Source: Candidatus Nanohalobium constans
GTDB taxonomy: Archaea > Nanohalarchaeota > Nanosalinia > Nanosalinales > Nanosalinaceae
Direction of reading: 5' to 3'
Assembly (NCBI RefSeq): GCF_009617975.1
Contig: NZ_CP040089.1
Span: 540,001-572,000, forward strand
Length of the DNA stretch: 32,000 nucleotides
The position numbers and the translations under genes are program-made. This document shows, piece by piece, positions 598-25,140 of this stretch; the stretch's first letter is position 1; each line of letters begins with the position of its first letter. Below the pieces are notes generated by a model. That model saw only the letters and a program-made list of their open reading frames with translations, made no database searches and was not told where the DNA came from.

Positions 598-618
598 TCC
601 AGTCAAAAATATTTGACA

Positions 619-1536
619 ATGGTTGATTTTGTCCGAGACGAAAACCTGATAGAAGCTGGAGAGCTGACGGAGAAAGAGCTCGAAGCACTTAACTCAGAGA
701 TCAGGGTTGAAGTACTCCGGAACCTCAGCGAGAAACCTTCTTATCCTTCAGCGCTTTCAGACAGCTTCGACTGCAGTAAACAGAAGATGTACTACCACTT
801 CGAGAAACTGGAAGACGCAGGTCTGATAGAGGTTGAAAGAAAAGAGGAGAAATCCGGGGGAGAAGCAACATACTACAGGCCAACACAGAAAGGATTCGTA
901 CTGGACCTCGGCGGAAAAGGAGAAAGTTTCCCCATGCCAGAACACAGTGAAGAAGTATCCAGCTTCTTGAAACCATTAATCAAAGACTCAGAGCTGAATG
1001 GTTCTATCGTAGTTGGCTCAGCAGAGCAGCACGGACCAGACCAGGTACAGGCACTGGACGGACATCTAGCCGGAGAGATAGCGTTCAAACTTGGAAACTA
1101 CTCCAGGACAGAAAACCCGGTTGTCAAGCTTGATACAGAGGTAGTAGGGGAAGAGGACTGGGAGGAGAACATGTTGATACTGGGAGGCGTGCTGACGAAT
1201 GTGGTTGCCAAAGAGTTCAACGAAAGCTTTCCTGCCTTCTTCCCAAGCGAGGAATTTCCTTACAGAAAGCTGGAGACTCCTGAGGACAGCTACAGTGATG
1301 GAGGGATCGGTGTGATTGCTAAGACATCCAATCCTGAGGACAGGGAGAAGAAGATATTTCTGGTAGCTGGAGTGCAGAATAAAGGGACTAAAGCCGCTGT
1401 CAAGGCGTTCCAGGATCTTGAAGAAGTTGTTGAAGACTATTCAGCAGGCCAGTTCTACGCCGTGGTCAGAGGATTGGATTTAAACAGCGACGGCGAGATA
1501 GATAGTTACAAGGTGATCGAAACCAGTGAACAGTGA
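619..1536 (+). CDS. Winged-helix (ArsR-like) DNA-binding protein with uncharacterised C-terminal domain
   Basis: ORF 613-1536 (TTG at 613; first ATG at 619). The N-terminus (IRVEVLRNLSEKPSYPSALSDSFDCSKQKMYYHFEKLEDAGLIEVERKEE...YYRPT) has the ArsR/wHTH pattern. The C-terminal ~200 aa has no motif I can name. Confidence 0.7.
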   Translation: MVDFVRDENLIEAGELTEKELEALNSEIRVEVLRNLSEKPSYPSALSDSFDCSKQKMYYHFEKLEDAGLIEVERKEEKSGGEATYYRPTQKGFVLDLGGKGESFPMPEHSEEVSSFLKPLIKDSELNGSIVVGSAEQHGPDQVQALDGHLAGEIAFKLGNYSRTENPVVKLDTEVVGEEDWEENMLILGGVLTNVVAKEFNESFPAFFPSEEFPYRKLETPEDSYSDGGIGVIAKTSNPEDREKKIFLVAGVQNKGTKAAVKAFQDLEEVVEDYSAGQFYAVVRGLDLNSDGEIDSYKVIETSEQ

Positions 1537-1547
1537 GGCAGATAGAA

Positions 1548-2756
1548 ATGGGTAGAGACTGGAAGGTATTTCAGACCGATGTCCTTGACCTTCTCAGACA
1601 GTACGAAGGATACATGGACTTCTTCGAGAGAGTGGGCAGTCTCAGCGACAACTCACGACCAGACGCATTCGCCAGGATCACCAGGAAAGACAAGAAAGAA
1701 ATATGGATATTGGATGCCAAGAACAAAAGCGAGATTGGGGAAGAAGACGAGAAAAGGATGAAGAAATACATCGAACAGATCAAATCCAACCCTGTCGATG
1801 TCGGATTAGAACTATCAGAACTTACCGATCACGAAGTTAAGGGCATCTTTATCACTCCAGGAAAAGCTGAGAGCCAGTACGAAACAGTAGAGTTCAAAGG
1901 ACTCCACCAGTTCCTGCAAAAAGAACTAATCTATACTGACACTGATAAAATCGTCCGAGATGTCGCGAAGATGGTGAAGAGAAAGAAACTGAGCCAGAGC
2001 CAAGCCCGACTCCTACATCAGTCTCTTGGACCTTTCAGGAAAAGACTGGAAAAGGTAAGGGAAGATCTTTCCCGGCTAGAATCAGACTTCGTCGGACTGA
2101 AGCTCTATACACCACCATTCGATAATCTCAGCTTTTCTCCACCTGCGGATGCCGTCATGAAGCATTCGGAGCGGAATCAGGTTTTCCTTATTGATATTCC
2201 TTACTCGCCTGAGGAGGCGGAAAAGGCAGAGGAACGAGCGGAAGATGTAGAGAAGTATATTGACGGAGAAGGATACTATGTATCACTGCACAACTTCGAT
2301 GTAGACTCAAGGTTTGCATGCCCACCTAAACAGTTCAAGGAACGAGTTCAGGAGGTTCTTGGAGTTGTATCTCCTGAGACGATGGCAGAAGTATTTATGC
2401 CAAAATTTGAGGTAGAGAAGAAGTACAGAGACGGTTTTATCGAATTGGTTTCCGACGAACTTGGTTTCAAGATGCGTGTTTCATCCGAAGACGATGTTAA
2501 CCACAGGGTTGAAGCATTTTTGAATGACGATGCCGTTTCCCGAATCAAGGATAGGAGTGTGAACAGTCGGAAAGAGTTCGGAGAGTTCCATGGCGACAAA
2601 TGGGTTCAAGATTTAAGTGTTGAAGAAGATTTGACAGTCAATTACGGTAATTCTGAGAGTTTGGAAAGCTACAAGCAGAGTGTGAAAAATATTTTCCACG
2701 CAGCCGTAAACCCTGTCTACAGCAAGAAAATCGCCCGTAAAACACAACAAAAATGA
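1548..2756 (+). CDS. Restriction-endonuclease-fold (PD-(D/E)xK, Mrr-cat-like) N-terminal domain protein with long unknown C-terminal region
   Basis: ORF 1533-2756. GTG 1533 overlaps the upstream stop as GTGA; ATG 1548 has GAGG 9 nt upstream. N-terminus: WKVFQTDVLDLLRQYEGY...RPDAFARI...KEIWILDAKNK, i.e. D...(D/E)xK with the spacing of Mrr-type nuclease cores. The remaining ~280 aa is not recognisable. Confidence 0.6.
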   Translation: MGRDWKVFQTDVLDLLRQYEGYMDFFERVGSLSDNSRPDAFARITRKDKKEIWILDAKNKSEIGEEDEKRMKKYIEQIKSNPVDVGLELSELTDHEVKGIFITPGKAESQYETVEFKGLHQFLQKELIYTDTDKIVRDVAKMVKRKKLSQSQARLLHQSLGPFRKRLEKVREDLSRLESDFVGLKLYTPPFDNLSFSPPADAVMKHSERNQVFLIDIPYSPEEAEKAEERAEDVEKYIDGEGYYVSLHNFDVDSRFACPPKQFKERVQEVLGVVSPETMAEVFMPKFEVEKKYRDGFIELVSDELGFKMRVSSEDDVNHRVEAFLNDDAVSRIKDRSVNSRKEFGEFHGDKWVQDLSVEEDLTVNYGNSESLESYKQSVKNIFHAAVNPVYSKKIARKTQQK

Positions 2757-3178
2757 ACAAAGAAGACTACATCGAGAAAAACCAGCTGGAAAATGTGATC
2801 CAGGAAATAGAGAAGACAGTAGACTCTATAATCGTAGAAGGCTGGGACGACAAGAAGATGATCCAGAAACTTGGCTTCGAAGGCAAAATCTTTATGTCGG
2901 CCGAAAAAACAGTTGAAGATCTGGTTGAAGATGTCTCAAGAGGATCGGAGAGAACAGCTGTTCTCACAGACTTCGATTCTCACGGAGAGGAAGCGTCCAA
3001 GGAAATTTCTAGGGAACTGGATAAAGAGATTGATGTAATAAGATCTGCAAGGCAGAAATTCGGGGCACAACTTACATCCACAGACAGGAGAGCTGTGGAG
3101 GATATCAGACCGCTTTTCGATGATAAAGAGGAGAAGTTTGTGGAGGCAGCGATGGACCAGCTCTTCTTTAACCCGTGA
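2753..3178 (+). CDS. Small Toprim-domain protein (RNase M5 / small primase-like family)
   Basis: ATG overlaps the upstream stop (ATGA at 2753-2756). Toprim signature: conserved Glu in IIVEGWDDKKMIQKLG and the DxD block AVLTDFDSHGEE. The 141-aa size fits the stand-alone Toprim proteins of archaea. Confidence 0.75.
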   Translation: MNKEDYIEKNQLENVIQEIEKTVDSIIVEGWDDKKMIQKLGFEGKIFMSAEKTVEDLVEDVSRGSERTAVLTDFDSHGEEASKEISRELDKEIDVIRSARQKFGAQLTSTDRRAVEDIRPLFDDKEEKFVEAAMDQLFFNP

Positions 3179-3211: not shown

Positions 3212-3862
3212 ATGCTGAAGGATGATGAGCTGGAGGAGTTGAAGTCTAGGTTAAATCAGGTTTTCTCAGGTTACAGCGAACTTGCAGGCGGTAAGAACTA
3301 CCGATACCAACACCTGACAACTACTCATAAAATGGTCTTGAACTTGGAAGAAGAACTGGATGTGGATGTTGACCAGAAAATTCTGGAGATCGCGGCTTTG
3401 TACCATGACATCGGCAGATCCAAGGATATTGAGGAAGGTGAGATGGATCCATTTGAAGGACATGAGGGTCACGATGAGAGAGGTGCAAAGATCGTCGGAG
3501 AATATGTCTCAGAGTTTGTGACCAAAGATCAACTTGAGAAAATCAGGGAAATTATCCGGAACCACCACTCAGAAGCAGAACATGTAGAAGGAGAGATAGT
3601 TCAAGACGCCGATAAACTATCAAACTTTGGTGTCAGCAATCTCTGGCGGCAGATACATTACGCAGCACAACACGAGAGAAGCTTCAAAGAAAGTCTGGAC
3701 TACTTCTGGAACACTGCAGTTGACGAATACCAGGAACAGATAGTAGAAATGCACTTTGAGCATACAAAGAAAGTTGCAGAGGAAAGACTGGAGAAGCAGA
3801 AACAAGTAATTCAGCGAATGGAGAAAGAGGTTGACGGCGAAGATATTTTAGAAATCAGTTAA
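3212..3862 (+). CDS. HD-domain metal-dependent phosphohydrolase
   Basis: LEIAALYHDIGR (H...HD), NHHSE and QDADKLSN motifs in the order typical of the HD superfamily. Confidence 0.8.
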   Translation: MLKDDELEELKSRLNQVFSGYSELAGGKNYRYQHLTTTHKMVLNLEEELDVDVDQKILEIAALYHDIGRSKDIEEGEMDPFEGHEGHDERGAKIVGEYVSEFVTKDQLEKIREIIRNHHSEAEHVEGEIVQDADKLSNFGVSNLWRQIHYAAQHERSFKESLDYFWNTAVDEYQEQIVEMHFEHTKKVAEERLEKQKQVIQRMEKEVDGEDILEIS

Positions 3863-4597
3863 AGACTGATTTATATCAGGATTGTATCCTTGAGATTTTA
3901 GCAGGGCTTCATAGTGTTCAGCTTTCTCTTCAGGATATACTGAGACTACATTCTCTAAGTCAATTTCATCTGTAAGAGTATCTGAGTGGTTTCCATACCC
4001 GAGTCGAGCTTCATGTACTTCTATTTCGAAGACAACACCTTCACCATCAAGATAGAATCTCATCTCCCTATGATCTTCATTTGTATAAATTACAGGAGTT
4101 ACACCAATTTTTTCCCGTAATCTTGAATTGATATTGGGCTTGATCTTTCCATCCCTTATTATTTCTTCAGCTTCCTGCGGTGTTTTAGCGGCATGGTAAA
4201 CTGTCACAAAGTTATCTGGATCAGTGTAGAGAGATATGTTATAATCACCAAACTCTTCAACCAGCTCAGTCCTGTATTCTGCGTGTATTCTGGGAAAAGG
4301 CATTATTCTTCTAAGAACACTCCTCTTTTTTTCTCCTAGGACTCCAGGAATAGTTCTTCTCTCTAGATCGCGTTTTGCCTTATACGCAAATCCTTTTTCC
4401 AGGCTAATATGATTTCTTTCACCATCAATTTCAATGCCTTTTCCATCAGGAAAGTTCTCAGTTAGCTTGACCAGTCTCGGATCCTCAAGCTGCTGAAATA
4501 CCTTATCAGCAGGCAAAGTCTCTCCATTCAAAAGATCCTGTATTACTTCTCCCTCCATAGACTCAACAAGCTCAAAAAACTTTGAATAAATATCCAA
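3848..4597 (-). CDS. Hypothetical protein with C-terminal PIP-box-like tail (NQSLTDF*)
   Basis: ORF 3848-4597 (TTG at 4597; alternative ATG at 4558). No family recognised. The last residues ...PDINQSLTDF share the pentapeptide SLTDF with the gene immediately upstream. Its 3' end overlaps the HD gene by 15 nt (convergent). Confidence 0.6.
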   Translation of the reverse strand: MDIYSKFFELVESMEGEVIQDLLNGETLPADKVFQQLEDPRLVKLTENFPDGKGIEIDGERNHISLEKGFAYKAKRDLERRTIPGVLGEKKRSVLRRIMPFPRIHAEYRTELVEEFGDYNISLYTDPDNFVTVYHAAKTPQEAEEIIRDGKIKPNINSRLREKIGVTPVIYTNEDHREMRFYLDGEGVVFEIEVHEARLGYGNHSDTLTDEIDLENVVSVYPEEKAEHYEALLKSQGYNPDINQSLTDF

Positions 4598-4610
4598 TTT
4601 TTTAACCGAG

Positions 4611-5573
4611 CTAGAAATCAGTAAGAGAGCTCTGATTCTGTTTCAATGCTCGTGCGTTGAATCCTTTCTCTCTTTTGAGGTATGATGCGAATTCTTCATC
4701 AAATCCGTGCTGTACATACACTTTTTCCGGGTCAACTTCTTCTACTAGCTTGACTAGACCGTCAAAGTCGCAGTGATCGGATAACTGAAATGTTTCGTCG
4801 TAGCCGCCGCGATACTTGAATGAGTCTGTGGTCGCCCAGCCAGAGAATCCTGCTTTAACGGCTCCAGTCTTGTCTACAAGTTTTTCTACCCAGTCACTTT
4901 GGGAAGTGTTTGAAGGTGCTACAAGTATTCCGTTGTCTTCCATCAGCTCCTTGTTTTCGCCGTATGGAATGGCTCTGAACTCTTTTTCCGCGGATTCCTC
5001 TACGACATCGTTCATGTTTTTGACGGAGCCATGTGCCAGTATCGGTCTTTCAGTTGCCTGTTCTGCTAGTTTCTGAATCTTCTGAGCTTTTCCCAACGAA
5101 TAGCCAAATAGAATCAGCGGAGAACCTTCATTCTGGATAAAGTCTTTGATCCTGTTTTCTATTACTCTCTGCTCTGGGAAGCGATATGCTGGTATGCCAT
5201 AAGTTGATTCTACTACGAGTATGTCAGCTGAAACTGGATTGAAACCGTCTAAGTACACTCTGTCTCTTAGGGAGACATCTCCTGTGTATAGAACGCTTTT
5301 TTCTCCTTTGATTTTTGCGGCTGAGCTCCCTAGTATGTGACCGGAGTTGTATAATTCAACTCTGTCATGTTCTGTTCTCTTGACTTCTTTACCGGCTCTG
5401 GCACCTGCAAGCTTAGCAGTTAGTTCTGAACAAACTACTTCTGAGTCGCTGAGGTGCATGTGGTCGAAGTGGGCGTGACTGACAAGGTTGATGTCGCCCT
5501 GACTGTTTCTGGAGTCGGCAACTACCTTCTCTTCTCCTTGTATATGGATGCCGTCTTTCTCCGTTATCTTCAC
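4611..5573 (-). CDS. Beta-CASP metallo-beta-lactamase-fold nuclease with C-terminal PIP-box-like tail (QSSLTDF*)
   Basis: GTG start at 5573. Motifs: LVSHAHFDHMH (HxHxDH), LVVESTYG, FSGWA, and LSDHCDFDGL...VYVQHG (beta-CASP motifs B/C). The 320-aa size resembles the short ligase-associated/SNM1-like exonucleases rather than CPSF73 or RNase J. Confidence 0.8.
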   Translation of the reverse strand: MKITEKDGIHIQGEEKVVADSRNSQGDINLVSHAHFDHMHLSDSEVVCSELTAKLAGARAGKEVKRTEHDRVELYNSGHILGSSAAKIKGEKSVLYTGDVSLRDRVYLDGFNPVSADILVVESTYGIPAYRFPEQRVIENRIKDFIQNEGSPLILFGYSLGKAQKIQKLAEQATERPILAHGSVKNMNDVVEESAEKEFRAIPYGENKELMEDNGILVAPSNTSQSDWVEKLVDKTGAVKAGFSGWATTDSFKYRGGYDETFQLSDHCDFDGLVKLVEEVDPEKVYVQHGFDEEFASYLKREKGFNARALKQNQSSLTDF

Positions 5574-8876: not shown

Positions 8877-9467
8877 TTAGAAGTCGAAGCTTCCCTGAGC
8901 GACTATCTCATCCATATCTTTCCTTCCGTTCGGCTCTACCCGCATATCCTCCGGCAGTTCAGATTCATCTCCTTTACTGCCGATAGCAACCATTGCTTCT
9001 ACTTCAAATCCTTCAGGAATATCCAGTACTTCTTTTGCTTTTTTGTAGTCGAATCCCTGCATGCCGTGAGCTACTAGATCTCTTCTAGCTGCTTCCAGCG
9101 CCAGGTTTTCCCATGCTGCGCCTGTGTCGAAGCTGTGGGTTATTGATTCTTCGCCGTTGTGGTCGAAGGTTGTTTTTGATGCAACTACTACTAGTGCGTA
9201 TCCTTTTTCTGCCCAGTCGCGGTTGAAGTCATTCATTAGGCTGCAGAAGTCTTCCCATTCCTGGTCTTCATAAGTTGCGTACATGAATCTCCAGCTCTGA
9301 TTATTATAGCTGCTTGGCGCCCATCTGGCGGCTTCGAACAATGCCATCAGATCTTCCTGGTTCATGTCTCTTTCCAGTGCGCGTGGAGAGTAACGGTTCA
9401 GGAATAACGGACTGATTTCGTATTCTGCGTTTCGCTTGCCTTCAACATCTTCTCGTAATTCTTTCAT
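8877..9467 (-). CDS. Nitroreductase-family oxidoreductase
   Basis: RYSPRAL...LFEAARWAPSSYNNQSWRF plus the C-terminal GFD...IPEGFEV...IGS pattern typical of the NADH/FMN nitroreductase fold. Confidence 0.85.
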   Translation of the reverse strand: MKELREDVEGKRNAEYEISPLFLNRYSPRALERDMNQEDLMALFEAARWAPSSYNNQSWRFMYATYEDQEWEDFCSLMNDFNRDWAEKGYALVVVASKTTFDHNGEESITHSFDTGAAWENLALEAARRDLVAHGMQGFDYKKAKEVLDIPEGFEVEAMVAIGSKGDESELPEDMRVEPNGRKDMDEIVAQGSFDF

Positions 9468-10146: not shown

Positions 10147-10440
10147 GTGCCTAAAATGCGAGACAAAATACAGAGGAAAAGTATTCTCCTGCTTCTGGGA
10201 GTAACCAAAGCGGTAGCCTCAACTAATAAAACTGTTCCAGGCAGATGGACCGAGTTCATTAATTCTATAAGAGTTACTAGTCAAACAGCCCACCTCAAAC
10301 TTATACAGATCGACGAGAAAGCAGCCCTAGAGTTTTATGACATGGAAAAAGACTTCAAGAGAAGAATTGGTAGGGGAAAACTGTACACTAAGTCAGATAT
10401 TGAGGATGCTCGCCATAGAATAGAAAAAGTTGATTTTTAA
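10147..10440 (+). CDS. Hypothetical basic protein (doubtful)
   Basis: 97-aa ORF with no motif. Its antisense strand carries HEPN-like fragments interrupted by stops, so either strand could be the relic. Confidence 0.3.
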   Translation: MPKMRDKIQRKSILLLLGVTKAVASTNKTVPGRWTEFINSIRVTSQTAHLKLIQIDEKAALEFYDMEKDFKRRIGRGKLYTKSDIEDARHRIEKVDF

Positions 10441-10997: not shown

Positions 10998-12287
10998 CTA
11001 CAGCCCAAGCTTCTGCATCATGTTCTGCATATTACCACGCTTCATAGATTTCTTGTCAAACTTGTCAACCATGTTCTTAGTTTGACGGTAATGCTTGATC
11101 AGCTCCTGAACATCCTCTACAGATGTTCCTGAACCGTTCGCAATTCTTTCTCTTCTTTCTCTATTGATTACTGATGGATCTTTTACTTCTTCATCAGTCA
11201 TGGAGTCAATTATGACATTGTAAGATTGTATTTTGCCTTCAGTCAGGTTAGCAACATTGTCTGGGATCTGGTCTGAGGAGAATGGTAGTTGACTCATCAT
11301 TTCCTCCATCATTCCACTGTCTGTGACAGATGCCATCTGCTCCTGAAAGTCTTCCAAGGTAAATTCTCCTTCCAGAATTGCCTCCGGGTCGGTGTCCAGC
11401 TCCTCTATCTTCTCCAGAAGGCTTTCCAGGTCCGGCTGCCCAATCATATCAGACACAAAGTCAACAGGATCGTAAACTTCGAGGTCCGCCATCTTCTCAC
11501 CGGTACCGATAAACTTGACAGAGATATCCGCGTGTTGACATGCAACCAGCGCCCCACCACCTTTAGCGGAGGAATCCATCTTAGTAACGATAACTCCAGA
11601 AAGTCCTACTGCATCATCAAAGTTCTCAGCCTGATCTCTCGCAGACTGACCAATATCGGCAGGGATAACCAGGTACTTCTCATCGGGCTGTAGAACCTTC
11701 TCCATATCAGAGAGTTCCTGCTTCAAATCATCATTCAACGAGTTCCTACCCGCCGAGTCAACGATTAAGACATCGACATCCAGCTCTTCCTTACCGTTTT
11801 CAACGACTTGAACAGGATCTTCAGCATCTTTCTCACCGTAGAAACTGGCTTCAACATCATCCGCAATCTGCTGTAGCTGTTCGAATGCGGCTGGTCTGTC
11901 AGTGTCTGCTGCGATGACTCCAACCTTCATGCCTCTTTTTCGGTAGAAGTCCGCTAGTTTACCTGTTGTAGTTGTCTTTCCTGCTCCGTAGAGTCCACAT
12001 AGTAGTATTGTCTGTGGCTCTATCTCAACTTCGGATTCCTCTCCGAGTAGTTCTTCTAGCTTGTTATAGACTACTTCCAGTACATGTTCTTTTCTGCTTA
12101 GACCGTCTTTTTTCTCTCCCAGGCTTTCTTCTCTTATTTCGTCAGAAAGGTCTGAGACCAGGCTTACATCTACATCTGCTTTTATGAGGTCTCTTTGTAT
12201 GTCTTTGACTAGTTGTTCTACTGCTTCTTCATCTGCTACATTGCTTGAGGAGAATTTCTGGATGCTGTCCTTGATTTTGTCAAACAT
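10998..12287 (-). CDS. srp54: Signal recognition particle protein SRP54
   Basis: NG domain GTPase motifs GLYGAGKTTT, DTDRPAA, DSAGR, TKMD, followed by a Met-rich M domain (GMMEEMMSQLPF..., MQNMMQKLGL). Confidence 0.95.
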   Translation of the reverse strand: MFDKIKDSIQKFSSSNVADEEAVEQLVKDIQRDLIKADVDVSLVSDLSDEIREESLGEKKDGLSRKEHVLEVVYNKLEELLGEESEVEIEPQTILLCGLYGAGKTTTTGKLADFYRKRGMKVGVIAADTDRPAAFEQLQQIADDVEASFYGEKDAEDPVQVVENGKEELDVDVLIVDSAGRNSLNDDLKQELSDMEKVLQPDEKYLVIPADIGQSARDQAENFDDAVGLSGVIVTKMDSSAKGGGALVACQHADISVKFIGTGEKMADLEVYDPVDFVSDMIGQPDLESLLEKIEELDTDPEAILEGEFTLEDFQEQMASVTDSGMMEEMMSQLPFSSDQIPDNVANLTEGKIQSYNVIIDSMTDEEVKDPSVINRERRERIANGSGTSVEDVQELIKHYRQTKNMVDKFDKKSMKRGNMQNMMQKLGL

Positions 12288-12723: not shown

Positions 12724-13530
12724 ATGGAGTTTTCGCTGACAAGAGTTGGAGACGAAAATATGCATTTGTATGATTCAGAGATTGAGTCACGGATTCAGCT
12801 TGTGTTTGTTCCCGGTGTTTTCTCAGCAGAGGCTTGGAAGTACCAGGTAAATTATTTTTCTGAGGATTACAGGACAGTAACTTATCAGCCTACAGTCAGT
12901 AACCGAGGTTTTGAAGGTCATAGAAAGGCTTTGAAACAGATAATTAACCAGGATGAAATGGATAATATTGTTTTGATAGGTGCTAACTACAGCAATTCTC
13001 TGGTACAGGGTTTTGAGGCACATGAGAGTGTTTCAGCGACTGTTGTTGGCGGGGCTAAAAAGAAGTTGAAGAAAGGTATTCCTAAGGAAGTTTATCAGGG
13101 TTTGACCTCAGGAGTTTTCCCTGTGAAGCTTTTCAAGAAGCTTTTCATGAAATCTATGCGTTATAAGGAGGTTAGGAGTTTCTGTAAGGATGTCAGCTTC
13201 CTTGATTTCAACGATTTTAAGTCATTTCAGGAAAGGTTCGGCGTTAGGAAGCCTGAGAAGGAGTGTATGATTGTACATGCTACTAGAGATATTTTCTCCG
13301 ATCGAGGTTATGCTAAGAATTTGATGTCTAGTGCTTCGGTTTCTGAGGTTGAATCAGGTGTTTTCAGTTTTTATGAGAAGCCTCAGGAGTTTAACAAGAT
13401 TTTGAATGATTTCCTGATCAAGATTGAGAGGAAAGCGATTAAGGAGAAAATTGAGGAAGAAAAGGAGAATAATAAGACGCTTGTAGATTTTGAAAACGGT
13501 AAAAGATTGGCTAAGGTGAATCAAGAATGA
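12724..13530 (+). CDS. Alpha/beta-hydrolase-fold protein with degenerate catalytic residues
   Basis: QLVFVPGVFSAEAWKYQVNYF...YRTVTY and CMIVHATRDIF...YEKPQEFNKILNDFL follow alpha/beta-hydrolase topology. The nucleophile elbow reads IGANYSN instead of GxSxG, and the expected His position reads SGVFSFYE. Confidence 0.6.
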   Translation: MEFSLTRVGDENMHLYDSEIESRIQLVFVPGVFSAEAWKYQVNYFSEDYRTVTYQPTVSNRGFEGHRKALKQIINQDEMDNIVLIGANYSNSLVQGFEAHESVSATVVGGAKKKLKKGIPKEVYQGLTSGVFPVKLFKKLFMKSMRYKEVRSFCKDVSFLDFNDFKSFQERFGVRKPEKECMIVHATRDIFSDRGYAKNLMSSASVSEVESGVFSFYEKPQEFNKILNDFLIKIERKAIKEKIEEEKENNKTLVDFENGKRLAKVNQE

Positions 13531-14431: not shown

Positions 14432-14779
14432 ATGAATTGGTCTGAAAAAGTACTTTCAGGTGCTTTAGTCTCAGCAGGCACAGCTATAGGTTATTCAATT
14501 TTTCAACAGAAACTAAATGAAGCAAAAGATGAATATTTGGAAGCTACTCCTGCAGAAAGACAGGAACTAGACGCTGAAGCCAAGGAGTTTATGATGAGTC
14601 ATGAAGTGGACCAAATAGACTCTGTGTACGATTTAGCCACCTCTATTTATAGTGTTGGTTTAGAGGACTTAGATGATCTATTAAAGTATGAGGGAGTCAT
14701 AAAAGACCAAAAAATTACAAGCAACAGCAGAGAAAGATCAATGAGAGATTTAGAAGAAAAAATAGATAACTTATTCTAA
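14432..14779 (+). CDS. Hypothetical protein with N-terminal hydrophobic anchor
   Basis: 115 aa. The N-terminus (VLSGALVSAGTAIGYSIF) is hydrophobic and the rest is acidic. Its 3' end overlaps ftsY by 9 nt (convergent). Confidence 0.5.
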   Translation: MNWSEKVLSGALVSAGTAIGYSIFQQKLNEAKDEYLEATPAERQELDAEAKEFMMSHEVDQIDSVYDLATSIYSVGLEDLDDLLKYEGVIKDQKITSNSRERSMRDLEEKIDNLF

Positions 14780-17611: not shown

Positions 17612-18164
17612 ATTCTCTGACTCTTTCCTGTATTCTTTGCTGGAAGATTGGTTTTCTGTCTTTCAGTTCTAGCATCCAGTAAGCCCACATAGCCAGTACT
17701 AGGAATGTCAGGCTCCAACTCCAGAGCACATCATGTATTAGGTCAAATGAGACTATGCCTTTTTCAGCTAGTACTACCGTGGTGTAGACTCTGATTATGT
17801 TAGCGATTATTATTACTGCTGTTCCTTGCAGCAGGTAGTTTAGGTGTTCTAGCGTTCTTTTTGTGGATGCAAATGTCAGTGCGTAGAATGCTGCTATGCT
17901 TTTCCATCCTAGGCAGTCCTGTGTTATGATGTATTCTGCTTTACTGGTTAGAAGGCTTATACCATTGACAGTTGTCTGGGTTCCTGTAGAGTTCAGCATC
18001 GCACCTATTATTTCAGCTAGAAAGCTTTGAAGGAACTCTGTGTTTGGATGTATGTACAGGATTCCCTGAAATATGGCTCCGACGACCAGTAGTTTTGCCA
18101 TGAACAGGAGTGTTTGAAAAAGCTTCTGCTGAGTCTCAGTAAATTGTTCAGAGTCAAATCTCAT
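17598..18164 (-). CDS. Exosortase/archaeosortase-family membrane protein
   Basis: Polytopic, with the family's Cys / Arg / His signature in order: ITQDCLGWKS ... IIANIIRVYT ... LIHDVLW. Its ATG overlaps the DUF460 stop (ATGA at 18161-18164). Confidence 0.65.
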   Translation of the reverse strand: MRFDSEQFTETQQKLFQTLLFMAKLLVVGAIFQGILYIHPNTEFLQSFLAEIIGAMLNSTGTQTTVNGISLLTSKAEYIITQDCLGWKSIAAFYALTFASTKRTLEHLNYLLQGTAVIIIANIIRVYTTVVLAEKGIVSFDLIHDVLWSWSLTFLVLAMWAYWMLELKDRKPIFQQRIQERVREFNRE

Positions 18165-19189
18165 CTGGAATCCTTGTAATCTTCAATTATGGATTCAAAG
18201 TTTTTAGGTTCTGGGAAGGATTCTACCAGGTAGAAATCGCTTAGTTCAACGCCCTCTACCCTGTCTACATGGTATATGTTGCAGCCGCGGTTCTCCAAGA
18301 CCTCTATCAGATCTTTATTTCTGGTTACTGCTTTTTCAGGTACTTCTTCAACCGACTTATCGACTACACGGACGAGGTCACGGTCCTCGTGGAAGATTTT
18401 CCGGACTGCTTTCCTGTACTGTTTTTCTCTTATCCTGTAATCGCTTATTTCCTCTTCAAGCTCTTCAATTTCCTGATTCTTTCTTTTGATCTCTGCCTCC
18501 CGCTTCTGAACCTCTTCCTCTTTCCTAACCTCTTTCCGCTCCTCATCTCTCAGCCGGCTTAACTTAGCCCTAAGGCTTTCCTTCTCACTTCTCTCTTCAC
18601 CAAGTTCAGATTTCAGCCGTTGAACCTGTTCCTCAAGGTTTTCAACCTTTTTCTCCAAACGCTTTTTCTCAGGATCCACGTCATCACCAGATCCAGAAGC
18701 TTCTCCAGCTTCACCATACTCATCAGGTTCCTCTGGCGTCGCATCCTCAGATTTTCTTACAGGCTCGCCTTCGAAGACCTTCTCAGCTACCTCTATCTTA
18801 TCCCGGTTTAACTGGCTTTTCAACTTGTTAATCTTCCGTATCTCTTTATGAAGCTGTTTTTGGGCATGTACCGCAGAGGCCAGTGCATCTAGCTCGTGAC
18901 TGTTGGCTCCTTTCCCAAGTCTTTTCTTCCGATCCTGGGAAAGGTCTTCTTCCGGCTCAAAAGTTTTTGCACCAAGTGATGAAGAAATCTTGTCCACTTT
19001 ACTCGGTGTCTTGCCTTTGTCGGATGCTACTACGACCGGTTTGCCAACTTTGATGAGTCTCTGGATTATTTCGCGCGGCGGAAAGTTTTTACCTGATTCC
19101 AGAAGTTCTACCTCTCCGTCTAGTGTTACTGCTGCGACTGCGGATGTGCTTCCAGGGTCTACTCCGACTATAAGCGGTTTTTTAGCCAT
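18161..19189 (-). CDS. DUF460 / COG2433 protein (RuvC/YqgF-like RNase H fold plus central coiled coil)
   Basis: LIVGVDPGSTSAVAAVTLDGEVELLES...GKPVVVASDKGKTPSKVDKISSSLGAKTFEPEEDL...NSHELDALASAVHA matches the conserved DUF460 N-terminal domain as I recall it. A Glu/Lys/Arg-rich coiled coil follows. Its ATG overlaps the Hef stop (TAATG at 19187-19191). Confidence 0.8.
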   Translation of the reverse strand: MAKKPLIVGVDPGSTSAVAAVTLDGEVELLESGKNFPPREIIQRLIKVGKPVVVASDKGKTPSKVDKISSSLGAKTFEPEEDLSQDRKKRLGKGANSHELDALASAVHAQKQLHKEIRKINKLKSQLNRDKIEVAEKVFEGEPVRKSEDATPEEPDEYGEAGEASGSGDDVDPEKKRLEKKVENLEEQVQRLKSELGEERSEKESLRAKLSRLRDEERKEVRKEEEVQKREAEIKRKNQEIEELEEEISDYRIREKQYRKAVRKIFHEDRDLVRVVDKSVEEVPEKAVTRNKDLIEVLENRGCNIYHVDRVEGVELSDFYLVESFPEPKNFESIIEDYKDSR

Positions 19190-21366
19190 TATTCGTAGTT
19201 TCGTGTTGCATAGTCCGTGATTTTGTCGGCTGTTTTCTGACCGATTCCATCAACTTCCTGTAACTCTCCACTACTTGCTGTGAATACTTTCCGAACAGTG
19301 CCAAATTCTTCTAGAAGCCTCTCCGCAATCTTTGTATTCACATCAGGGATTCCTGAGACAATAAACTCCATAGTTTCCTCAGGAGTCATACCGCTCTTGG
19401 TTCCTCTGACCTGTACATCCCGATCTTTATCCTTCTGTTCTCGCTTCGCCAGCGACTTCAATGTCTCAGCTGTGTCATCCTCATCCTGCGTCCAGATAAT
19501 AGGCACACCATAGTCTAGAGCCATACTGGAAATAGCGCCTCTGATGGCTTCAGGAGCGATATCACGATGATGATACAGATTCTTTCCCTCGATAATCACG
19601 ATAGGATTCTCAAACTGAGTAATCTCCTGCAACTGGTCAAACAAACGATTATCAATTATAGAATCAACAAAGTCAGCTGCCTCCTTCCTCTCCACACCGG
19701 TACGATCAGAAACAATAAAGTCAGCTACATCAAGGCGTTTCTTCTCAACTTCTATATCGCTGCGAGAAAGCTCCTTCGCGATGCTGTTCTCACGGTCATC
19801 TGCTACGACCTTGATTCCATCATCTTTCTCTTCAGCTTGATCTTCTTTCTTTTCCTCATTATAACTATCCAGTTTCCTCTGATCGAGGTCGTCCTCACGC
19901 TCCTCTATCTCATCAGAGTTCTTCAACTCCTTCAAGGTCTTCTTCATGTTCTTCTTCTTGTGATGAGCACTCCAGTAGTATCCCTCATCCCTTGTATCCT
20001 CCGCTATAAGTACTGTGACCTCTCCTTCCTCCTGTCTACCTGTTCTACCCGCTCTCTGAATATCACGGACAGCAGAAGGCACAGGCTCATAGAACAAGAC
20101 TTTATCTACCGCAGGGATGTCCAATCCTTCTTCTCCTATCGATGTAGATACCAGGACATTGTGTTCGCCATCATCGAATTCTGAGAGTGTTTCTATCTGT
20201 TCTGTCTGGCTCATTCCATCGTCTCCTTGCTGCCCGATAAACTTGACAGGCTTAAGTCCTTCCTCTTCAAGTTCTTCTAGTATTTTGTCGGCAGTGGCAC
20301 GATACTCGGTGAATACGATCGCTTTTTCATCTCCGGAAAGGTCAGATAGGAGTTCTCGCGTCTTATCAATTTTCGGATGTTCTTCTCCTTTCTTTCTCAG
20401 GTATTCGATTAAAGATTTGGCTTTGAGGAAGTCCTCGTCTTCTAGTGCTCTGGCAGCGGCCTTAGAATCGTCGTTGTCCAGTCCTCTGATGTAGTCGTAG
20501 GCCTGGCTGACTCCTTGAGTCTGAAGTAGTTCGATAGCTTGAGACATCTTCAAGGCTGTTGCAACATGTGAAATTGCAGAATAGAGTTTAGGGTCATCAG
20601 TCGAGGAAAGTTTTGAGGACAACTTACCTCTTAGATTCAGTAAATCAGTTTTCTGAACATTATTTATGGAGTCTAGCTGATCCAGTTTCTGAAGCTTCTT
20701 CAACTGGGTTCTCTTGGCATCTTCCATCTTTTTGTTGGCAGTCTGGAAGCGGTTGTCAAGCGATACTCTCTTCCAGTTGACCTCTTTGTCTTCTATGTAT
20801 GGTTCTACATCTGGGTCGTCTTCAGTCCTGATTTCAAAGTTGTTTATTTCCAGGTTGTCAGCGACCTCCATGATTTTTTCCTTGTCGCCCCCTGGAGAGG
20901 CCGTTAGTGCCAGTTTTTGACATGATGTTTTCTCTGATATAAAGTTGTAGGCGTAGTCTCCTGTTGCTCGATGTGCTTCGTCGAATATAACCAGTGAGAA
21001 GTCTTCGAACGGTATTTTTCCTGAGATTATGTCGTTTTCTACTATCTGTGGTGTTGCGAAGAATGCCTGTTTTTCCTGCCAGAGTTTTTCTCTCTTGGCT
21101 GGCCTTGTGTCGCCTGTCATTACCTTTAACTGGTCTTCAGGTATGTCTAGGAACTTGTTGAATTCTCTTTTGTGTTGTTGAACTAGTGGTTTGGTTGGTG
21201 CGAGAAACAGTGTTTTTCCTTTGTCTAGTTTTTGGGATGCTACCATGAGTGCGATCATGGTTTTTCCTAGTCCTGTGGGTAGGACGACTAAGGTGTTTTG
21301 GTCGCGGCTTGATGCTGCGATTACTTCCTGATATGTCCGGCTTTCTATTTCTTCTGTCTTTAGCAC
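19189..21366 (-). CDS. hef: Hef: SF2 helicase fused to ERCC4/XPF nuclease and a HhH2 domain
   Basis: GTG start. Helicase motifs PTGLGKT, FDEAH, SASPG, TSIGEEGLDIP, QRAGRTGR. Nuclease motif VADFIVSDRTGVERKEAADF. C-terminal GELQEVDGIGQKTADKI is helix-hairpin-helix. Confidence 0.9.
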   Translation of the reverse strand: MLKTEEIESRTYQEVIAASSRDQNTLVVLPTGLGKTMIALMVASQKLDKGKTLFLAPTKPLVQQHKREFNKFLDIPEDQLKVMTGDTRPAKREKLWQEKQAFFATPQIVENDIISGKIPFEDFSLVIFDEAHRATGDYAYNFISEKTSCQKLALTASPGGDKEKIMEVADNLEINNFEIRTEDDPDVEPYIEDKEVNWKRVSLDNRFQTANKKMEDAKRTQLKKLQKLDQLDSINNVQKTDLLNLRGKLSSKLSSTDDPKLYSAISHVATALKMSQAIELLQTQGVSQAYDYIRGLDNDDSKAAARALEDEDFLKAKSLIEYLRKKGEEHPKIDKTRELLSDLSGDEKAIVFTEYRATADKILEELEEEGLKPVKFIGQQGDDGMSQTEQIETLSEFDDGEHNVLVSTSIGEEGLDIPAVDKVLFYEPVPSAVRDIQRAGRTGRQEEGEVTVLIAEDTRDEGYYWSAHHKKKNMKKTLKELKNSDEIEEREDDLDQRKLDSYNEEKKEDQAEEKDDGIKVVADDRENSIAKELSRSDIEVEKKRLDVADFIVSDRTGVERKEAADFVDSIIDNRLFDQLQEITQFENPIVIIEGKNLYHHRDIAPEAIRGAISSMALDYGVPIIWTQDEDDTAETLKSLAKREQKDKDRDVQVRGTKSGMTPEETMEFIVSGIPDVNTKIAERLLEEFGTVRKVFTASSGELQEVDGIGQKTADKITDYATRNYE

Positions 21367-21403
21367 GGATAAGTGTTGTGTAGGGAATTTTCTTAACGCT
21401 TCC

Positions 21404-21919
21404 CTAGTTTAATGCGAAGTCGTCTTGCGGTGTTTCCATTGATTGTAGGAGTTTGAATCCTACCATAGCCGCTACGAAAAATATTCCGGAAGCCTTCAGA
21501 GTAACTTCGTTGATAGGTGTACTTGTCTTGATCAGGATTACGCCGATATATGCTAATGTGTAGACTACACCTGAGGAGGATACTACGAAGGCTACTGTTT
21601 CACTCCATTTATGGTAGAAGTCCATGTACCCTATGAATATTCCGGTTCCTATGAGGCTGTAGGCTGCGTATTCTTCCATGCGGCTTAGGCTTGGTGTTGT
21701 CATTAGGAGTGTTACTCCTGTTGTTACCCAGATTATCGCGTTTCCAACCGATGTGTTCCATCCGAGGTCTTCTCGTGTGTGTTTGCCGAAGTAGAGTTCT
21801 ATGACCAGTCCGCCGAGAATTAAGGGGAGTACGGTTGGGAGTATATCAGGCTGTTTAATTGGTGTAAGTATGAATGATTTTAGAACTTCTTGAACTGTTT
21901 GACTTTGGGTAGTTAGCAT
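21404..21919 (-). CDS. Integral membrane protein, unknown function
   Basis: 171 aa with about 5 hydrophobic segments. Lies 13 nt downstream of the ATPase gene. Confidence 0.6.
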   Translation of the reverse strand: MLTTQSQTVQEVLKSFILTPIKQPDILPTVLPLILGGLVIELYFGKHTREDLGWNTSVGNAIIWVTTGVTLLMTTPSLSRMEEYAAYSLIGTGIFIGYMDFYHKWSETVAFVVSSSGVVYTLAYIGVILIKTSTPINEVTLKASGIFFVAAMVGFKLLQSMETPQDDFALN

Positions 21920-21932
21920 TTCTTAATCACTT

Positions 21933-23195
21933 CTAGTCTGTGAATGCGTCCGGTGTTCCTCCTGCGTGCCATGATTTTCTTGGTCGCATCTGGATAGGGA
22001 AGATTCTCTCAGAGTTGTCGTCTAGTATCAGGCCTGTACCTGTTCTGTCGGGTAGCGCGTCGATGTAGTGTTGGATGTCGTGTCGCATGTATGTCTGCAT
22101 TATTTCTCCTAGTGCATCGATATCCTGTTTGGCTGTAAGTCTGTGTGAGAGAACTATGTCACATTGGGAAAGTGCGTTCGGATGAAGTTTTGCCGGTTGC
22201 TGAGTCGCCAGTACAAGCGACACTCCTGGCTCTCTACCGATCTTCACCCATCTCAGAAGCGGATGTGTTGCCGGAGTCTCGCCTTTAGCTGGCAGGAACT
22301 GGTGGGCTTCGTCAATCATCATCCATACTATAGGCATTTCGTTCTCTGAGATGCCTTCCATCTCCTCAAGTTCTTCAACCCTGCGGGCCTCCATCCTCTG
22401 TCTTAGTATTCTTTTAGCGAGTAATCCTACTACAAGGCTTCTGATAGACCAACCCGAACTCATCTCCCCGAAGACAGAGACATCGATCACGGAAAGCTCT
22501 CCTCTCTCCGTAAACTTGCCAAGAGAAGATTCTTCGCCGAATATACCCCAGTCTTTAGCATTTCTTAACCTGTTTTCCAGGTTCTTCTTGATGTGTTCAT
22601 CGAATTCGAATTTGTGAGTGCCTTTGATGATATGGTCTAAGTTATAATCTACTCCCGACCTATCAGAAAGTTCCGAGATAATTCGGTCGAGTAAAATACC
22701 TGTTTCAGAGTTAATATCAATATTTAATGCCATCGCCCATTCAGAAGCAGTTAATTCACCTGGGTTAACCGTGAAAGTATCGTCATAGGGCATCTCATTC
22801 TGTTCAAAGCTTTGAACCTTTCCCTCAGGAATATACACATTTACATCGAACGCCTCAGGCTTCTCATCCCAGCCCTCCAGCATCGAAGCAGCCCTGTCAT
22901 TCGGATGCTTCATAGACCAGTAAATACCCATAGAATCAATTATAACAGTAGAACAATTCTGGGCAACACTTGAAGTCTGAATCTCTTCCGCAATAGTCCC
23001 GAGCGAGTACGATTTACCAGTTCCTCTCTTCCCAAAGACCCCCATGACATGAGGTCGGGCGATATCAAAGTAAACTGTGTTGGCAGTATGGGCTTCTTCG
23101 TTTTCACCGACAAGATGTTTTCCAATTTTGCCGGTGCCCTCAAGGCCGTACTTCTGTTTATCTTCTTCATCTCTTCCGACTGTTATCTTAGGCAT
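21933..23195 (-). CDS. HerA/FtsK-superfamily P-loop ATPase (COG0433-like, no HAS barrel)
   Basis: Walker A GVFGKRGTGKSYS. Walker B with the following acid, VWMMIDEAHQF. REPGVSLVLATQQP and LSQCDIVLSHRL match the HerA-type sensor/arginine-finger blocks. TTG at 23198, ATG at 23195. Confidence 0.8.
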   Translation of the reverse strand: MPKITVGRDEEDKQKYGLEGTGKIGKHLVGENEEAHTANTVYFDIARPHVMGVFGKRGTGKSYSLGTIAEEIQTSSVAQNCSTVIIDSMGIYWSMKHPNDRAASMLEGWDEKPEAFDVNVYIPEGKVQSFEQNEMPYDDTFTVNPGELTASEWAMALNIDINSETGILLDRIISELSDRSGVDYNLDHIIKGTHKFEFDEHIKKNLENRLRNAKDWGIFGEESSLGKFTERGELSVIDVSVFGEMSSGWSIRSLVVGLLAKRILRQRMEARRVEELEEMEGISENEMPIVWMMIDEAHQFLPAKGETPATHPLLRWVKIGREPGVSLVLATQQPAKLHPNALSQCDIVLSHRLTAKQDIDALGEIMQTYMRHDIQHYIDALPDRTGTGLILDDNSERIFPIQMRPRKSWHAGGTPDAFTD

Positions 23196-23230
23196 CAACT
23201 AGAGTTTGGGCGAGCTCGGGTTTAAAGATT

Positions 23231-23877: not shown

Positions 23878-24357
23878 CTAGGTGAACATCTCCATCATAT
23901 TCTCCCTCAGGTCGTAATCCTCAGAGTCACGGAAAATCTCCGGAAACTCTCTGATCTCATCCAAGTGAAGACCTGTTTCACCATTCTCATAAGCAGCTCG
24001 TAAATCACTCCACGGCACCATATAAGCCTTCCTAGCCTTTCCACGACCACGCTTAAACTCGACCGCTAGAAAGCCCTTCCGACCGGAACGATCGATGAAA
24101 TCAGATATCCTCTCAACCTGATGACCGCCATTACTGGTAGAGAAATGCTGAGTGAAATACAGTTTATTTGTAGAATCAACTTTGACAGACTTGTTCTCTA
24201 TCGCCAGGTAAAATGTCTCATGAGGCGAATCAACCAAAACATCACATAACTGGCTGGAAAAACGGTGTTGCTTCTTCCTATGCGCGATGCCTTCAATCTC
24301 CTCTTCCTCAAAGAAATCATTAAACGAATTTACTAACGCTCTCTCAAAGTCTGTCAT
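23878..24357 (-). CDS. PD-(D/E)xK nuclease, Hjc (Holliday-junction resolvase)-like
   Basis: FERALVNSF..., then LCDVLVDSP...FYLAIENKSVK (D ... ExK), then RSGRKGFLAVEFK. The order and spacing are those of archaeal Hjc-type resolvases. At 159 aa it is somewhat longer than typical Hjc. Confidence 0.5.
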   Translation of the reverse strand: MTDFERALVNSFNDFFEEEEIEGIAHRKKQHRFSSQLCDVLVDSPHETFYLAIENKSVKVDSTNKLYFTQHFSTSNGGHQVERISDFIDRSGRKGFLAVEFKRGRGKARKAYMVPWSDLRAAYENGETGLHLDEIREFPEIFRDSEDYDLRENMMEMFT

Positions 24358-24393: not shown

Positions 24394-25140
24394 TCAGAAG
24401 CTGTTCAATCCTTTCTGACTTGGTTGCTTCAAGACTTTCCCAGAAGTCATCGCCATCGCCACCCTACCATTAGAAACAATCTGCCCCTTCACTGACTGGA
24501 CTTCTCCCTCCAGCAAGCCCTTCCTGGAAAAATCTCCTTTAAGATGTGGATAGACTGTAAGTTCCTGAACATCCATAACTGCTGTGTCAAAGCCGTTCTC
24601 TTCTAGAATTTCCTGAAGCCTGGAAGGATTTCGTGGATCGGAAGTCTTCCTCTCCTTCCTAATCCTCTGAGTAATCTTACCCGTCGTGAAATCTTCCTCC
24701 TTCTCCAGTGCCTCATTTGAAGTTAAACCCGAGAATATTTCCGCTCCATAATCCGCTCCCTGCTCAATCCACCTCCTAGGAATCTTCTCCTTCCTCGTCA
24801 CACCAACTTTGACCTCTTCTCCGATCTGGGCTAGGTAGACTGAGAACTCGCCATCTAAATCGTTTTGCTCCCCACGGACATAGCCTGAGTAAATATCTTT
24901 TCCTCGGCATTCAGGGCACTGAGAGCCTTTCTGTATCTTCCGGAATTCCGGACAAGGAGCTCTCTCACCAGGTTTAGGAGCGTACCCAGTACACCTTCTC
25001 TCATTGGAAACCTCATAGGAAAGTCCTCTACCAGGTTCTAAACCTCTCTTCTCGAATCCTTCTTCCGTGGCGAGGAATAGCTGGGTCTTCCATTCTCCTT
25101 CAGAATCTTGCTTCCACTGTACTTTGATTATCGACTTCAT
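24394..25140 (-). CDS. Zn-ribbon protein with C-terminal PIP-box-like tail (QKGLNSF*)
   Basis: Cys cluster RRCTGY...APCPEF...SQCPECRG. Then FSVYLAQIGEEVKVGVTRKEKIPRRWIEQGA, which resembles DUF2797 / T5orf172-type (GIY-YIG-clan-like) cores from memory. Ends ...KQPSQKGLNSF. ATG at 25140 (TTG at 25143). Confidence 0.6.
   Translation of the reverse strand: MKSIIKVQWKQDSEGEWKTQLFLATEEGFEKRGLEPGRGLSYEVSNERRCTGYAPKPGERAPCPEFRKIQKGSQCPECRGKDIYSGYVRGEQNDLDGEFSVYLAQIGEEVKVGVTRKEKIPRRWIEQGADYGAEIFSGLTSNEALEKEEDFTTGKITQRIRKERKTSDPRNPSRLQEILEENGFDTAVMDVQELTVYPHLKGDFSRKGLLEGEVQSVKGQIVSNGRVAMAMTSGKVLKQPSQKGLNSF

Follow-up and report, generated by a model that had tools for sequence, protein, structure and literature searches.

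A PIP-box-like C-terminal peptide on an archaeal beta-CASP nuclease, and its DNA-level duplicate at the end of an adjacent orphan gene in Candidatus Nanohalobium constans

Why should two neighboring genes, one for a recognizable nuclease and the other for a protein of no recognized family, end in the same five residues? The question is raised by a 32,000-nucleotide (nt) stretch of Candidatus Nanohalobium constans DNA (contig NZ_CP040089.1, positions 540,001 to 572,000; here called the window, with positions counted from its first letter). An open reading frame (ORF) of 320 amino acids (aa) on the minus strand, 4611 to 5573, ends in ALKQNQSSLTDF before its stop codon. Next to it on the same strand is an ORF first listed as 3848 to 4597, which ends in NPDINQSLTDF. 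Each of the two proteins has a 100% identical counterpart among the NCBI entries for Ca. Nanohalobium constans. Both are in the ORF list, with tails as cited in a preliminary description of this DNA, which regarded the first protein as a beta-CASP nuclease tethered to PCNA through a PCNA-interacting peptide (PIP box) and the second as a partner bearing the same tag. We consider it probable that the locus combines a clamp-tethered archaeal nuclease with an orphan gene that was inserted beside it and whose reading frame runs into a second, duplicated nuclease tail. The observation of the shared tail and the assignment of the nuclease tail as a PIP box thus survive from that description; an independent PIP box on the second protein, a lineage-specific variant of the motif, and an ADP-ribosyltransferase fold do not.

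The motifs HAHFDH, VESTYG, LSDHCDF, and VQHG were all found in the 320-aa ORF, which has the metallo-beta-lactamase (MBL) motifs (HxHxDH, the downstream His, and the Asp) as well as beta-CASP motifs A, B, and C. It also matches the Pfam RMMBL domain. Conservation was counted among its best 120 homologs, which are nanohaloarchaeal and range down to 58% identity; H33, H35, D37, H38, H79, D99, E122, D266, H267, and H289 are invariant in this set. The proposal that the protein is a compact beta-CASP MBL is upheld by its best NCBIfam match, TIGR04122, the ligase-associated DNA damage response exonuclease (E = 3e-54, 184 bits), which spans model positions 26 to 321 of 326. The next matches are much weaker (Cas14, 3e-13; aCPSF1, about 2e-11). 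The score of 184 bits is under the curated equivalog cutoff of TIGR04122, which is 325 bits. Because of this, and because no ligase neighbors the gene in the N. constans genome, we place the protein in a related archaeal sister group rather than among the equivalogs; by its sequence it corresponds, in archaea, to the bacterial ligase-associated "Exo." A profile search of the PDB gave partial matches to CPSF73-type proteins, Cas14, Integrator-11, and SNM1A/Apollo and no close solved structure.

The last seven residues of the nuclease, QSSLTDF (4614 to 4634, minus strand), have the Q at position 1, the L/I/M at position 4, and the aromatic residue at position 7 that make up the PIP pattern. All of the best 120 homologs carry Q-x-x-L-x-x-F/Y at the C terminus or at most 2 residues from it, with NQ[ST][ST]Lxx[FY] kept throughout; Q314 and L317 are invariant, and F320 is conserved in at least 90%. 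A wider survey, made by scanning species-representative genomes, covered 80 nuclease loci. The canonical tail was present in 17/17 complete nanohaloarchaeal genes, in 28/28 genes from Halobacteria (typically as NQTSLGDF), in 2/2 from Methanomassiliicoccales, and at the 1 locus from Brockarchaeota. The motif occurs in 1 of 3 nanoarchaeotal genes. Among 24 genes from Nitrososphaeria, 5 are canonical and 16 more have a Q-less [LIMV]xx[FYW] tail, mostly NSLDDF. Bacterial orthologs, taken from exonuclease-ligase clusters, align to about residue 311 of the nuclease and no further, and the PIP motif was not found in the two whose ends were read (...ARPLHLVGYEDEGD and ...ARPLRLVGYEEEAE). Since the tail is kept across archaea and is missing from these two bacterial proteins, it appears to follow the presence of PCNA rather than the fold.

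The PIP box is defined generally as QXXhXXaa and in Haloferax and other haloarchaea as QxxLxxFx (PMC4929162, PMC7776575). No second aromatic residue stands at position 8 of the nuclease tail, most orthologs stopping at position 7; given the haloarchaeal consensus (PMC7776575), this is usual for the group. The tail might have been missing from nanohaloarchaeal and haloarchaeal orthologs or equally common on unrelated proteins. Neither is the case: the strict motif matches 23 of 420 ORFs from nanohaloarchaeal loci, and 20 of the matches are the nuclease itself. The three matches on other proteins, among about 400 ORFs, are a DNA polymerase IV (GQRRLSGFMD), a DUF2797 protein of the window that is taken up below, and one membrane protein that probably matches by chance. 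In haloarchaeal loci, the strict motif outside the nuclease matches just two DNA adenine methyltransferases. The fit to the PIP consensus that was claimed for QSSLTDF extends to every nanohaloarchaeal and haloarchaeal ortholog examined. We regard it as well supported, and very probable, that this tail is a genuine PIP box and that its bearer is a PCNA-tethered repair nuclease.

In Halobacteria, an ATP-dependent DNA ligase lies upstream of the nuclease gene and on the same strand at 14 or more of 25 loci. This ligase scores above the dnl1 cutoff and matches the haloarchaeal LigA model best. No ligase adjoins the nuclease gene in the window, where the neighbors are a gene for a major facilitator superfamily (MFS) transporter and the orphan and HD genes, and neither Lhr nor PdeM was seen beside archaeal nuclease genes. 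The bacterial Exo, still called "a putative exonuclease" in 2020 (PMC7826289), is likewise a compact MBL/beta-CASP protein, about 320 to 340 aa long and with all of the metal-binding motifs. It aligns with the archaeal nuclease over residues 28 to 312, and linkage to an ATP-dependent ligase is common to bacteria and many haloarchaea. The two differ in sequence (23 to 28% identity, with the archaeal protein at 184 bits against the 325-bit cutoff) and in their C termini, the two bacterial ends that were read being ...LVGYEDEGD, in contrast to the PIP-like tail of the archaeal protein. Gene order also differs, with ligase preceding exonuclease in haloarchaea and exonuclease preceding ligase in the bacterial clusters. 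One of these clusters holds a DEXH helicase and PdeM as well, whereas there is no Lhr-Core or PdeM near the window nuclease. The two bacterial exonucleases (L085, 5899 to 6915; L086, 5893 to 6906) share an ending of their own (ARPL[HR]LVGYE[DE]E..).

The eukaryotic nucleases SNM1A/PSO2 and Apollo belong to the same fold class and give weak profile matches to the archaeal protein (1e-6), but they are distant, and its matches to CPSF73-type proteins are stronger. SNM1A is recruited through a PIP box; that of the archaeal nuclease is at the extreme C terminus. Motif C is typically Val in SNM1 and is His here. In function, the nuclease seems to belong with NucS and NreA among the non-core archaeal PCNA clients, while its fold is that of the bacterial Exo. 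Like NucS and NreA (MacNeill 2016, PMC4929162), it is a repair-type protein with QxxLxxF at the extreme C terminus, conserved across archaeal lineages. Unlike them, it is a beta-CASP protein, NucS being RecB-like and NreA of unknown fold, and its PCNA binding is predicted. No mention of this nuclease was found in PMC4929162 or PMC7776575 or by literature searches.

These comparisons can be put together as follows. Archaea would have added a C-terminal PIP box, [KR]xNQxxLxx[FY], to a beta-CASP exonuclease of the ligase-associated type. The Gln, Leu, and Phe of the tail would insert into the interdomain-connector pocket of PCNA, and the nuclease would be clamp tethered at nicks, gaps, or damaged ends that are later sealed by ligase. 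It is conservation and gene context that suggest the tethering step.

How, then, did the adjacent gene come by the same tail? The two gene ends align over 24 nt with 21 identities and one 3-nt gap. The proximal copy (4611 to 4637, minus strand) reads AATCAGAGCTCTCTTACTGATTTCTAG and encodes NQSSLTDF and a stop; the distal copy (3848 to 3871, minus strand) reads AATCAG---TCTTTAACTGATTTCTAA and encodes NQSLTDF and a stop. When up to 3 mismatches are allowed, the last 18 nt of the nuclease gene occur at a single other place in the 32-kb window, namely, the end of the orphan, and the shared tail is evidently not a matter of chance. The distal copy also lies within the end of a third gene. A convergent plus-strand gene for an HD/HDIG-domain protein (3212 to 3862) overlaps the orphan end by 15 nt, its last 4 codons and stop (LEIS and stop) being encoded opposite LTDF and stop of the orphan.

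Loci in which the orphan is absent show the same two flanking genes in direct contact. The 3' ends of the nuclease and HD genes overlap by 4 nt in L002, with an 84% identical nuclease, and in L082 and L083 (86%). In L014, with a 58% identical nuclease, they overlap by 15 nt. The 3' flank of the distal repeat (AATATCTTCGCC...), which is the sequence after the orphan stop (AATATCTTCGCCGTC...), is homologous to that after the L014 nuclease stop (AATATCTTCCCCTTC...) and to its equivalent in L002, and the sequence after the window nuclease stop is unrelated to the post-stop flanks of either locus. From this homology of flanks, the distal copy occupies the position that the nuclease tail itself holds in relatives without the orphan.

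Between the direct repeats, of 27 and 24 nt, lies an insert of about 740 bp (3872 to 4610). Direct repeats flanking the boundaries are what would be looked for in an integrative element or transposon. The insert contains no recombinase, integrase, or transposase, and its single ORF has no match in Pfam, PHROGs, or PADLOC; no inverted repeats were found at its ends. The shared SLTDF thus goes back to common descent of DNA and not to convergence. The orphan tail had been offered as further evidence for a PIP variant. As a DNA-level duplicate of the nuclease tail, identical at 21 of 24 positions, it is not independent evidence for a PIP box.

We propose that the ancestral nuclease gene ran with its last codons into the 3' end of the HD gene convergent to it. 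A Nanohalobium subclade would then have received, between the two, a foreign segment of about 740 bp with its own upstream signals and the orphan ORF. Because the nuclease and HD genes overlapped and both were kept intact, the insertion had to duplicate the overlap. The nuclease would have retained the proximal repeat; the distal repeat still overlaps the HD gene, and the orphan ORF enters it in frame, taking from it the last 7 codons and the position of the stop codon. The insertion step is the one that is displayed by comparative sequence. The repeat may have arisen as a target-site duplication of unusual length, as the att-type repeat of an element since decayed, or through repair; the insert has neither recombinase nor inverted repeats. 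In common with integrated elements flanked by att-site or target-site duplications, the insert is a foreign segment with low GC content at third codon positions (GC3), and a direct repeat of 24 to 27 nt restores the gene end. It differs from them in having no integrase, transposase, or terminal inverted repeats, in amounting to about 740 bp and a single gene, and in that the distal repeat is the coding end of the inserted gene.

The orphan itself is shorter than first listed. The preliminary description had the two genes 13 nt apart on one strand; they are adjacent on that strand, but the spacing does not hold. None of the three other copies of the orphan conserves the TTG at 4597, whereas an ATG or GTG equivalent to window position 4558 is common to all four and is also the start annotated by NCBI. 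The orphan gene (3848 to 4558, minus strand, ATG at 4556 to 4558) therefore most likely encodes 236 aa, the 249-aa version being unlikely, and the spacer measures 52 nt (4559 to 4610, the upstream end of the insert). All four copies start 51 to 52 nt downstream of the nuclease stop codon. Within the spacer is a 19-mer, TTATTCAAAGTTTTTTGAG (4571 to 4589), that is identical in 4/4 copies; synonymous sites are near saturation between the window or L088 and L001. This 19-mer may belong to the orphan's own promoter or 5' region.

The statement that the second protein resembles no recognized family held up in every collection searched. A search of 5.8 billion proteins returned the orphan itself and one relative, 73% identical, and a profile search of 1.84 billion cluster representatives gave no match beyond the orphan. 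No relatives were found in two metagenome scans, in viral contigs, or by tblastn against phages and plasmids, and there was no match in Pfam, PHROGs, PADLOC, or the PDB sequences. Two further copies, L088 and L089, are truncated by contig ends and lie on contigs of the closest nuclease ortholog (P0004, 87%). The orphan is nevertheless a real gene under purifying selection: the proportions of nonsynonymous (pN) and synonymous (pS) differences are 0.152 and 0.729 between the window and L001 and 0.076 and 0.388 between the window and L088. With a GC3 of 0.296, it ranks second from the bottom among 39 window ORFs, the median being about 0.43. Other window ORFs with low GC3 (0.28 to 0.34), at 14432 to 14779, 29793 to 30284, 27850 to 28431, and 26468 to 27115, may have been recently acquired.

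Comparison of the copies points to exchange between lineages. Between the window and L088, pS is 0.76 in the nuclease gene, which is saturated, versus 0.39 in the adjacent orphan. L001 and L088 are near identical (pS 0.15) from the nuclease 3' end through the spacer to orphan codon 40, and the rest of the orphan is saturated between them (pS 0.82). From these contrasts, we infer that there are at least two orphan alleles and that recombination has reshuffled them relative to the nuclease background, with a breakpoint at about codon 40 of the orphan. On account of this recombination and of its low GC3, the orphan appears to be an accessory, mobile gene that is exchanged horizontally. It is the closest orthologs of the window nuclease that the orphan accompanies, a pattern consistent with its gain in one subclade.

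The co-occurrence of the pair follows the same boundary: the genes are neighbors in three closely related lineages, a narrow Nanohalobium subclade, and not beyond it, and in at least 7 other loci from nanohaloarchaea the junction is empty or occupied by a different gene. Elsewhere, the nuclease-HD junction holds a 399-aa gene in L084 (3061 to 4260, minus strand), a 266-aa gene in L012 (5805 to 6605, plus strand), or a 201-aa gene in L013 (9914 to 10519, plus strand); in L003, L005, L007, and L008 there are genes of 110 to 115 aa at about 11004 to 11350 (plus strand), followed by a Toprim gene. Because the genes directly downstream of the nuclease gene are unannotated and differ from one nanohaloarchaeon to another, this site has the look of an accessory-gene hot spot. 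No tail repeats were found around the other junction genes in the other genomes. A TnpB-like (OrfB_IS605) gene lies about 3.8 kb away in L084, and the HD gene of L082 (4960 to 5599, minus strand) is in pieces of 88 and 133 aa, which may reflect a frameshift or a pseudogene.

Several observations weigh against the account given so far, and the first group concerns whether the orphan tail still works as a PIP box. The tail peptides are LKQNQSSLTDF in the nuclease, YNPDINQSLTDF, and YNPRIVTSLDDF. In the window orphan, NQSLTDF has N at position 1, owing to the 3-nt deletion in the distal copy, and Q at position 2, and the Q-to-L spacing is lost. The tail of L001, the sole other complete copy, is VTSLDDF, which lacks Gln. 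The canonical Q-x-x-L spacing is thus absent from the orphan tail, and the L-x-x-F anchor is kept. Moreover, 4 of 5 tail residues are conserved, which is no more than the 73% protein-wide identity predicts. A broken spacing, a lost Gln, and conservation at the protein average, together with the fact that the same bases encode the HD C terminus on the opposite strand, would be expected if the orphan tail were a passive by-product that persists because no other stop context is available and because the HD gene overlaps it, with no binding to PCNA. We treat this as a serious contender that falls a little short of even probability. The HD C terminus varies in sequence and in length (AEDF, GEDILEIS, GRDISEIVQ, and AEDFLIL, each followed by a stop), so the HD gene imposes little constraint on the tail. 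The window and L001 differ at 17 of 33 bases around the tail, and the S and L of the orphan tail are kept by synonymous changes; the same substitutions in the overlap are nonsynonymous in the HD frame and move the HD stop. The hydrophobic anchors L and F are retained as well.

We judge residual PCNA binding by the orphan tail to be a roughly even matter, and the orphan probably inherited a weakened but usable clamp-docking peptide. The further proposal, that the orphan became a PCNA client by duplicating the last 24 to 27 bases of its neighbor and, at the clamp, competes with, regulates, or hijacks the repair nuclease, is doubtful on the present comparisons; the possible N-terminal winged-helix region described below would fit a DNA-associated role. 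As to the insertion, the orphan could, formally, have been present ancestrally and been lost later by recombination between the repeats.

The remaining points on that side concern the nuclease. Its motif C His and its match to a Pfam RNA-specificity domain make an RNA or RNA/DNA substrate possible, and in Nanohaloarchaea the gene is without ligase linkage, the MFS transporter gene being the one upstream. A His at motif C is typical of the beta-CASP members that act on RNA. An enzyme of mRNA 3'-end processing or of RNA metabolism, with a conserved tail that is structural or binds a partner other than PCNA, would agree with the RMMBL match, with the invariance of H289 at motif C, and with database names such as "putative mRNA 3-end processing factor." It is nevertheless unlikely, because the closest family is the DNA-ligase-associated exonuclease and not aCPSF1 or RNase J (3e-54 versus 1.6e-11), because ligase adjoins the gene in haloarchaea and bacteria, and because the tail fits the PIP consensus and is present in PCNA-using archaea while missing in the two bacterial orthologs.

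A DNA-repair nuclease with a PIP box, followed by a gene that received a copy of that box, also accounts for the shared tail better than the idea with which the locus was first described, in which both proteins are PCNA-client partners and each independently acquired or retained a lineage-specific PIP variant, [QN]xxLx[DS]F. Both tails do exist. Synonymous changes (TCT/TCA and TTA/CTG) leave S, L, D, and F the same in the orphan tails of the window and L001 while 17 of 33 surrounding nt differ, and Q-less tails of the NSLDDF type are found on thaumarchaeal nuclease orthologs. Independent acquisition is quite improbable all the same: the tails are homologous in their DNA, the distal copy sits at the nuclease-tail position of the relatives, the adjacency is limited to the three closely related lineages, and the orphan tail has N or V in position 1. 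The variant itself is not supported, since its N stems from the duplicated and deleted copy and since position 6 varies widely in orthologs, being D, E, Q, R, H, S, or N in the tails of nuclease and DUF2797 orthologs. The nuclease tail is instead of the ordinary haloarchaeal form, a C-terminal QxxLxxF(x).

That the orphan arose by tandem duplication of the nuclease gene, with fast divergence and an internal deletion, which would explain strand, adjacency, and tail and for which there is a weak colinear match of orphan residues 124 to 187 to nuclease residues 65 to 126 (including V[IL]YT....R.YLDG; BLASTP E = 0.035 and hhalign P = 0.045, both single comparisons), is highly improbable and was rejected, because with the tails removed the Smith-Waterman score of 48 is at background level (scores of unrelated nanohaloarchaeal ORFs reach 64, and at least 14 of these ORFs exceed the orphan), the match is gone with the L001 copy (score of 33, shuffle p = 0.6), there is no DNA similarity beyond the tail, and GC3 is 0.30 in the orphan versus 0.45 in the nuclease gene.

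What the orphan protein may be was approached through structure prediction. AlphaFold2 models are poor (pLDDT of 38 for the full length and 42 for residues 100 to 236), with the N-terminal 60 residues somewhat better predicted. Foldseek searches with these poor models returned nothing below E = 0.1 and no ADP-ribosyltransferase fold. The top matches of the full model are almost all winged-helix DNA-binding domains, over 60 to 75 residues and with E of at least 0.5, and we take a winged-helix region as a hint and not as a result. An H...Y...E spacing had been thought reminiscent of ADP-ribosyltransferase/Tpt1-like folds; this was rejected for want of support, given that the orphan has no Pfam match even at E of ≤10, that hhalign against Escherichia coli KptA gave a probability of 0.1%, and that no such fold was returned by Foldseek.

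Among the other tails of the window, QKGLNSF (24397 to 24417), which had been listed beside the shared tail, is indeed present, at the end of a DUF2797 zinc-ribbon protein (24394 to 25143, minus strand; Pfam DUF2797, 2.3e-12). Q[KR]G[LV]xx[FY] stands at the extreme C terminus in 119 of the best 120 DUF2797 homologs, which are nanohaloarchaeal, and this protein is a good additional candidate for a PCNA client. Its identification as NreA was rejected; NreA proteins are about 400 aa long and archaea specific (PMC4929162). Directly downstream is a 159-aa gene (23878 to 24357, minus strand) with no family match, in which a D...ExK pattern seen by eye (DVLVD...IENKS) is suggestive of a PD-(D/E)xK nuclease. 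NKTLVDF, the other tail once listed, was found 12 residues from the end of the ORF at 12724 to 13530; it is internal and has N at position 1, and no homolog of this ORF was found within the nuclease-centered loci that were compared. Two more proteins of the window end in DF, a nitroreductase (QGSFDF; 8877 to 9467, minus strand) and a small ORF (KVDF; 10147 to 10440, plus strand). Their spacing is not PIP-like, and a C-terminal DF may be common in an acidic proteome.

The DNA polymerase IV noted above, a Y-family enzyme of nanohaloarchaeon QJJ-5 (L019, 3816 to 4943, minus strand), is the sole member of a known PCNA-client class in the nanohaloarchaeal DNA examined, and its end, GQRRLSGFMD, is of the ordinary QxxLxxF form. 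The two haloarchaeal methyltransferases (L033, 10991 to 11929, and L021, 4073 to 5011, both on the minus strand) carry the tails GQASIADF, in the Dam family, and NQSRLTSY, in a CcrM-like protein. In Halovenus, the Dam gene is convergent to the beta-CASP nuclease gene and comes directly after it.

Two further gene groups lie near the pair. At 613 to 3178 on the plus strand, the window encodes a helix-turn-helix/S-layer-like protein (307 aa), a 407-aa protein without assignment, and a 141-aa Toprim protein. This string is conserved in nanohaloarchaea (L002 to L018) and accompanies the HD and nuclease genes at most loci, and its Toprim protein has a conserved C-terminal [DE]AA[LM]xx[LI][FY] motif. 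At a distance of 13 kb (18161 to 23198, minus strand) is a cluster of DNA-repair type, with a DUF460 protein, Hef (helicase, ERCC4, and helix-hairpin-helix), and a HerA-like ATPase.

The nuclease of this locus represents an uncharacterized and widespread archaeal repair nuclease, very probably clamp tethered, that is the counterpart of the uncharacterized bacterial Exo. In haloarchaea, its gene stands beside a LigA-type ligase, and a direct test in Haloferax genetics is feasible. The locus also illustrates that identical C-terminal motifs on neighboring genes can arise through DNA duplication at overlapping gene ends; such neighbor pairs should not count as independent evidence when genomes are mined for PIP-box clients. 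If the orphan did become a PCNA client in this way, it would document how insertion at overlapping gene ends can hand a short linear motif to a new gene. The orphan offers a concrete and datable example of a new gene that would owe both a functional peptide and its stop codon to the gene beside it.

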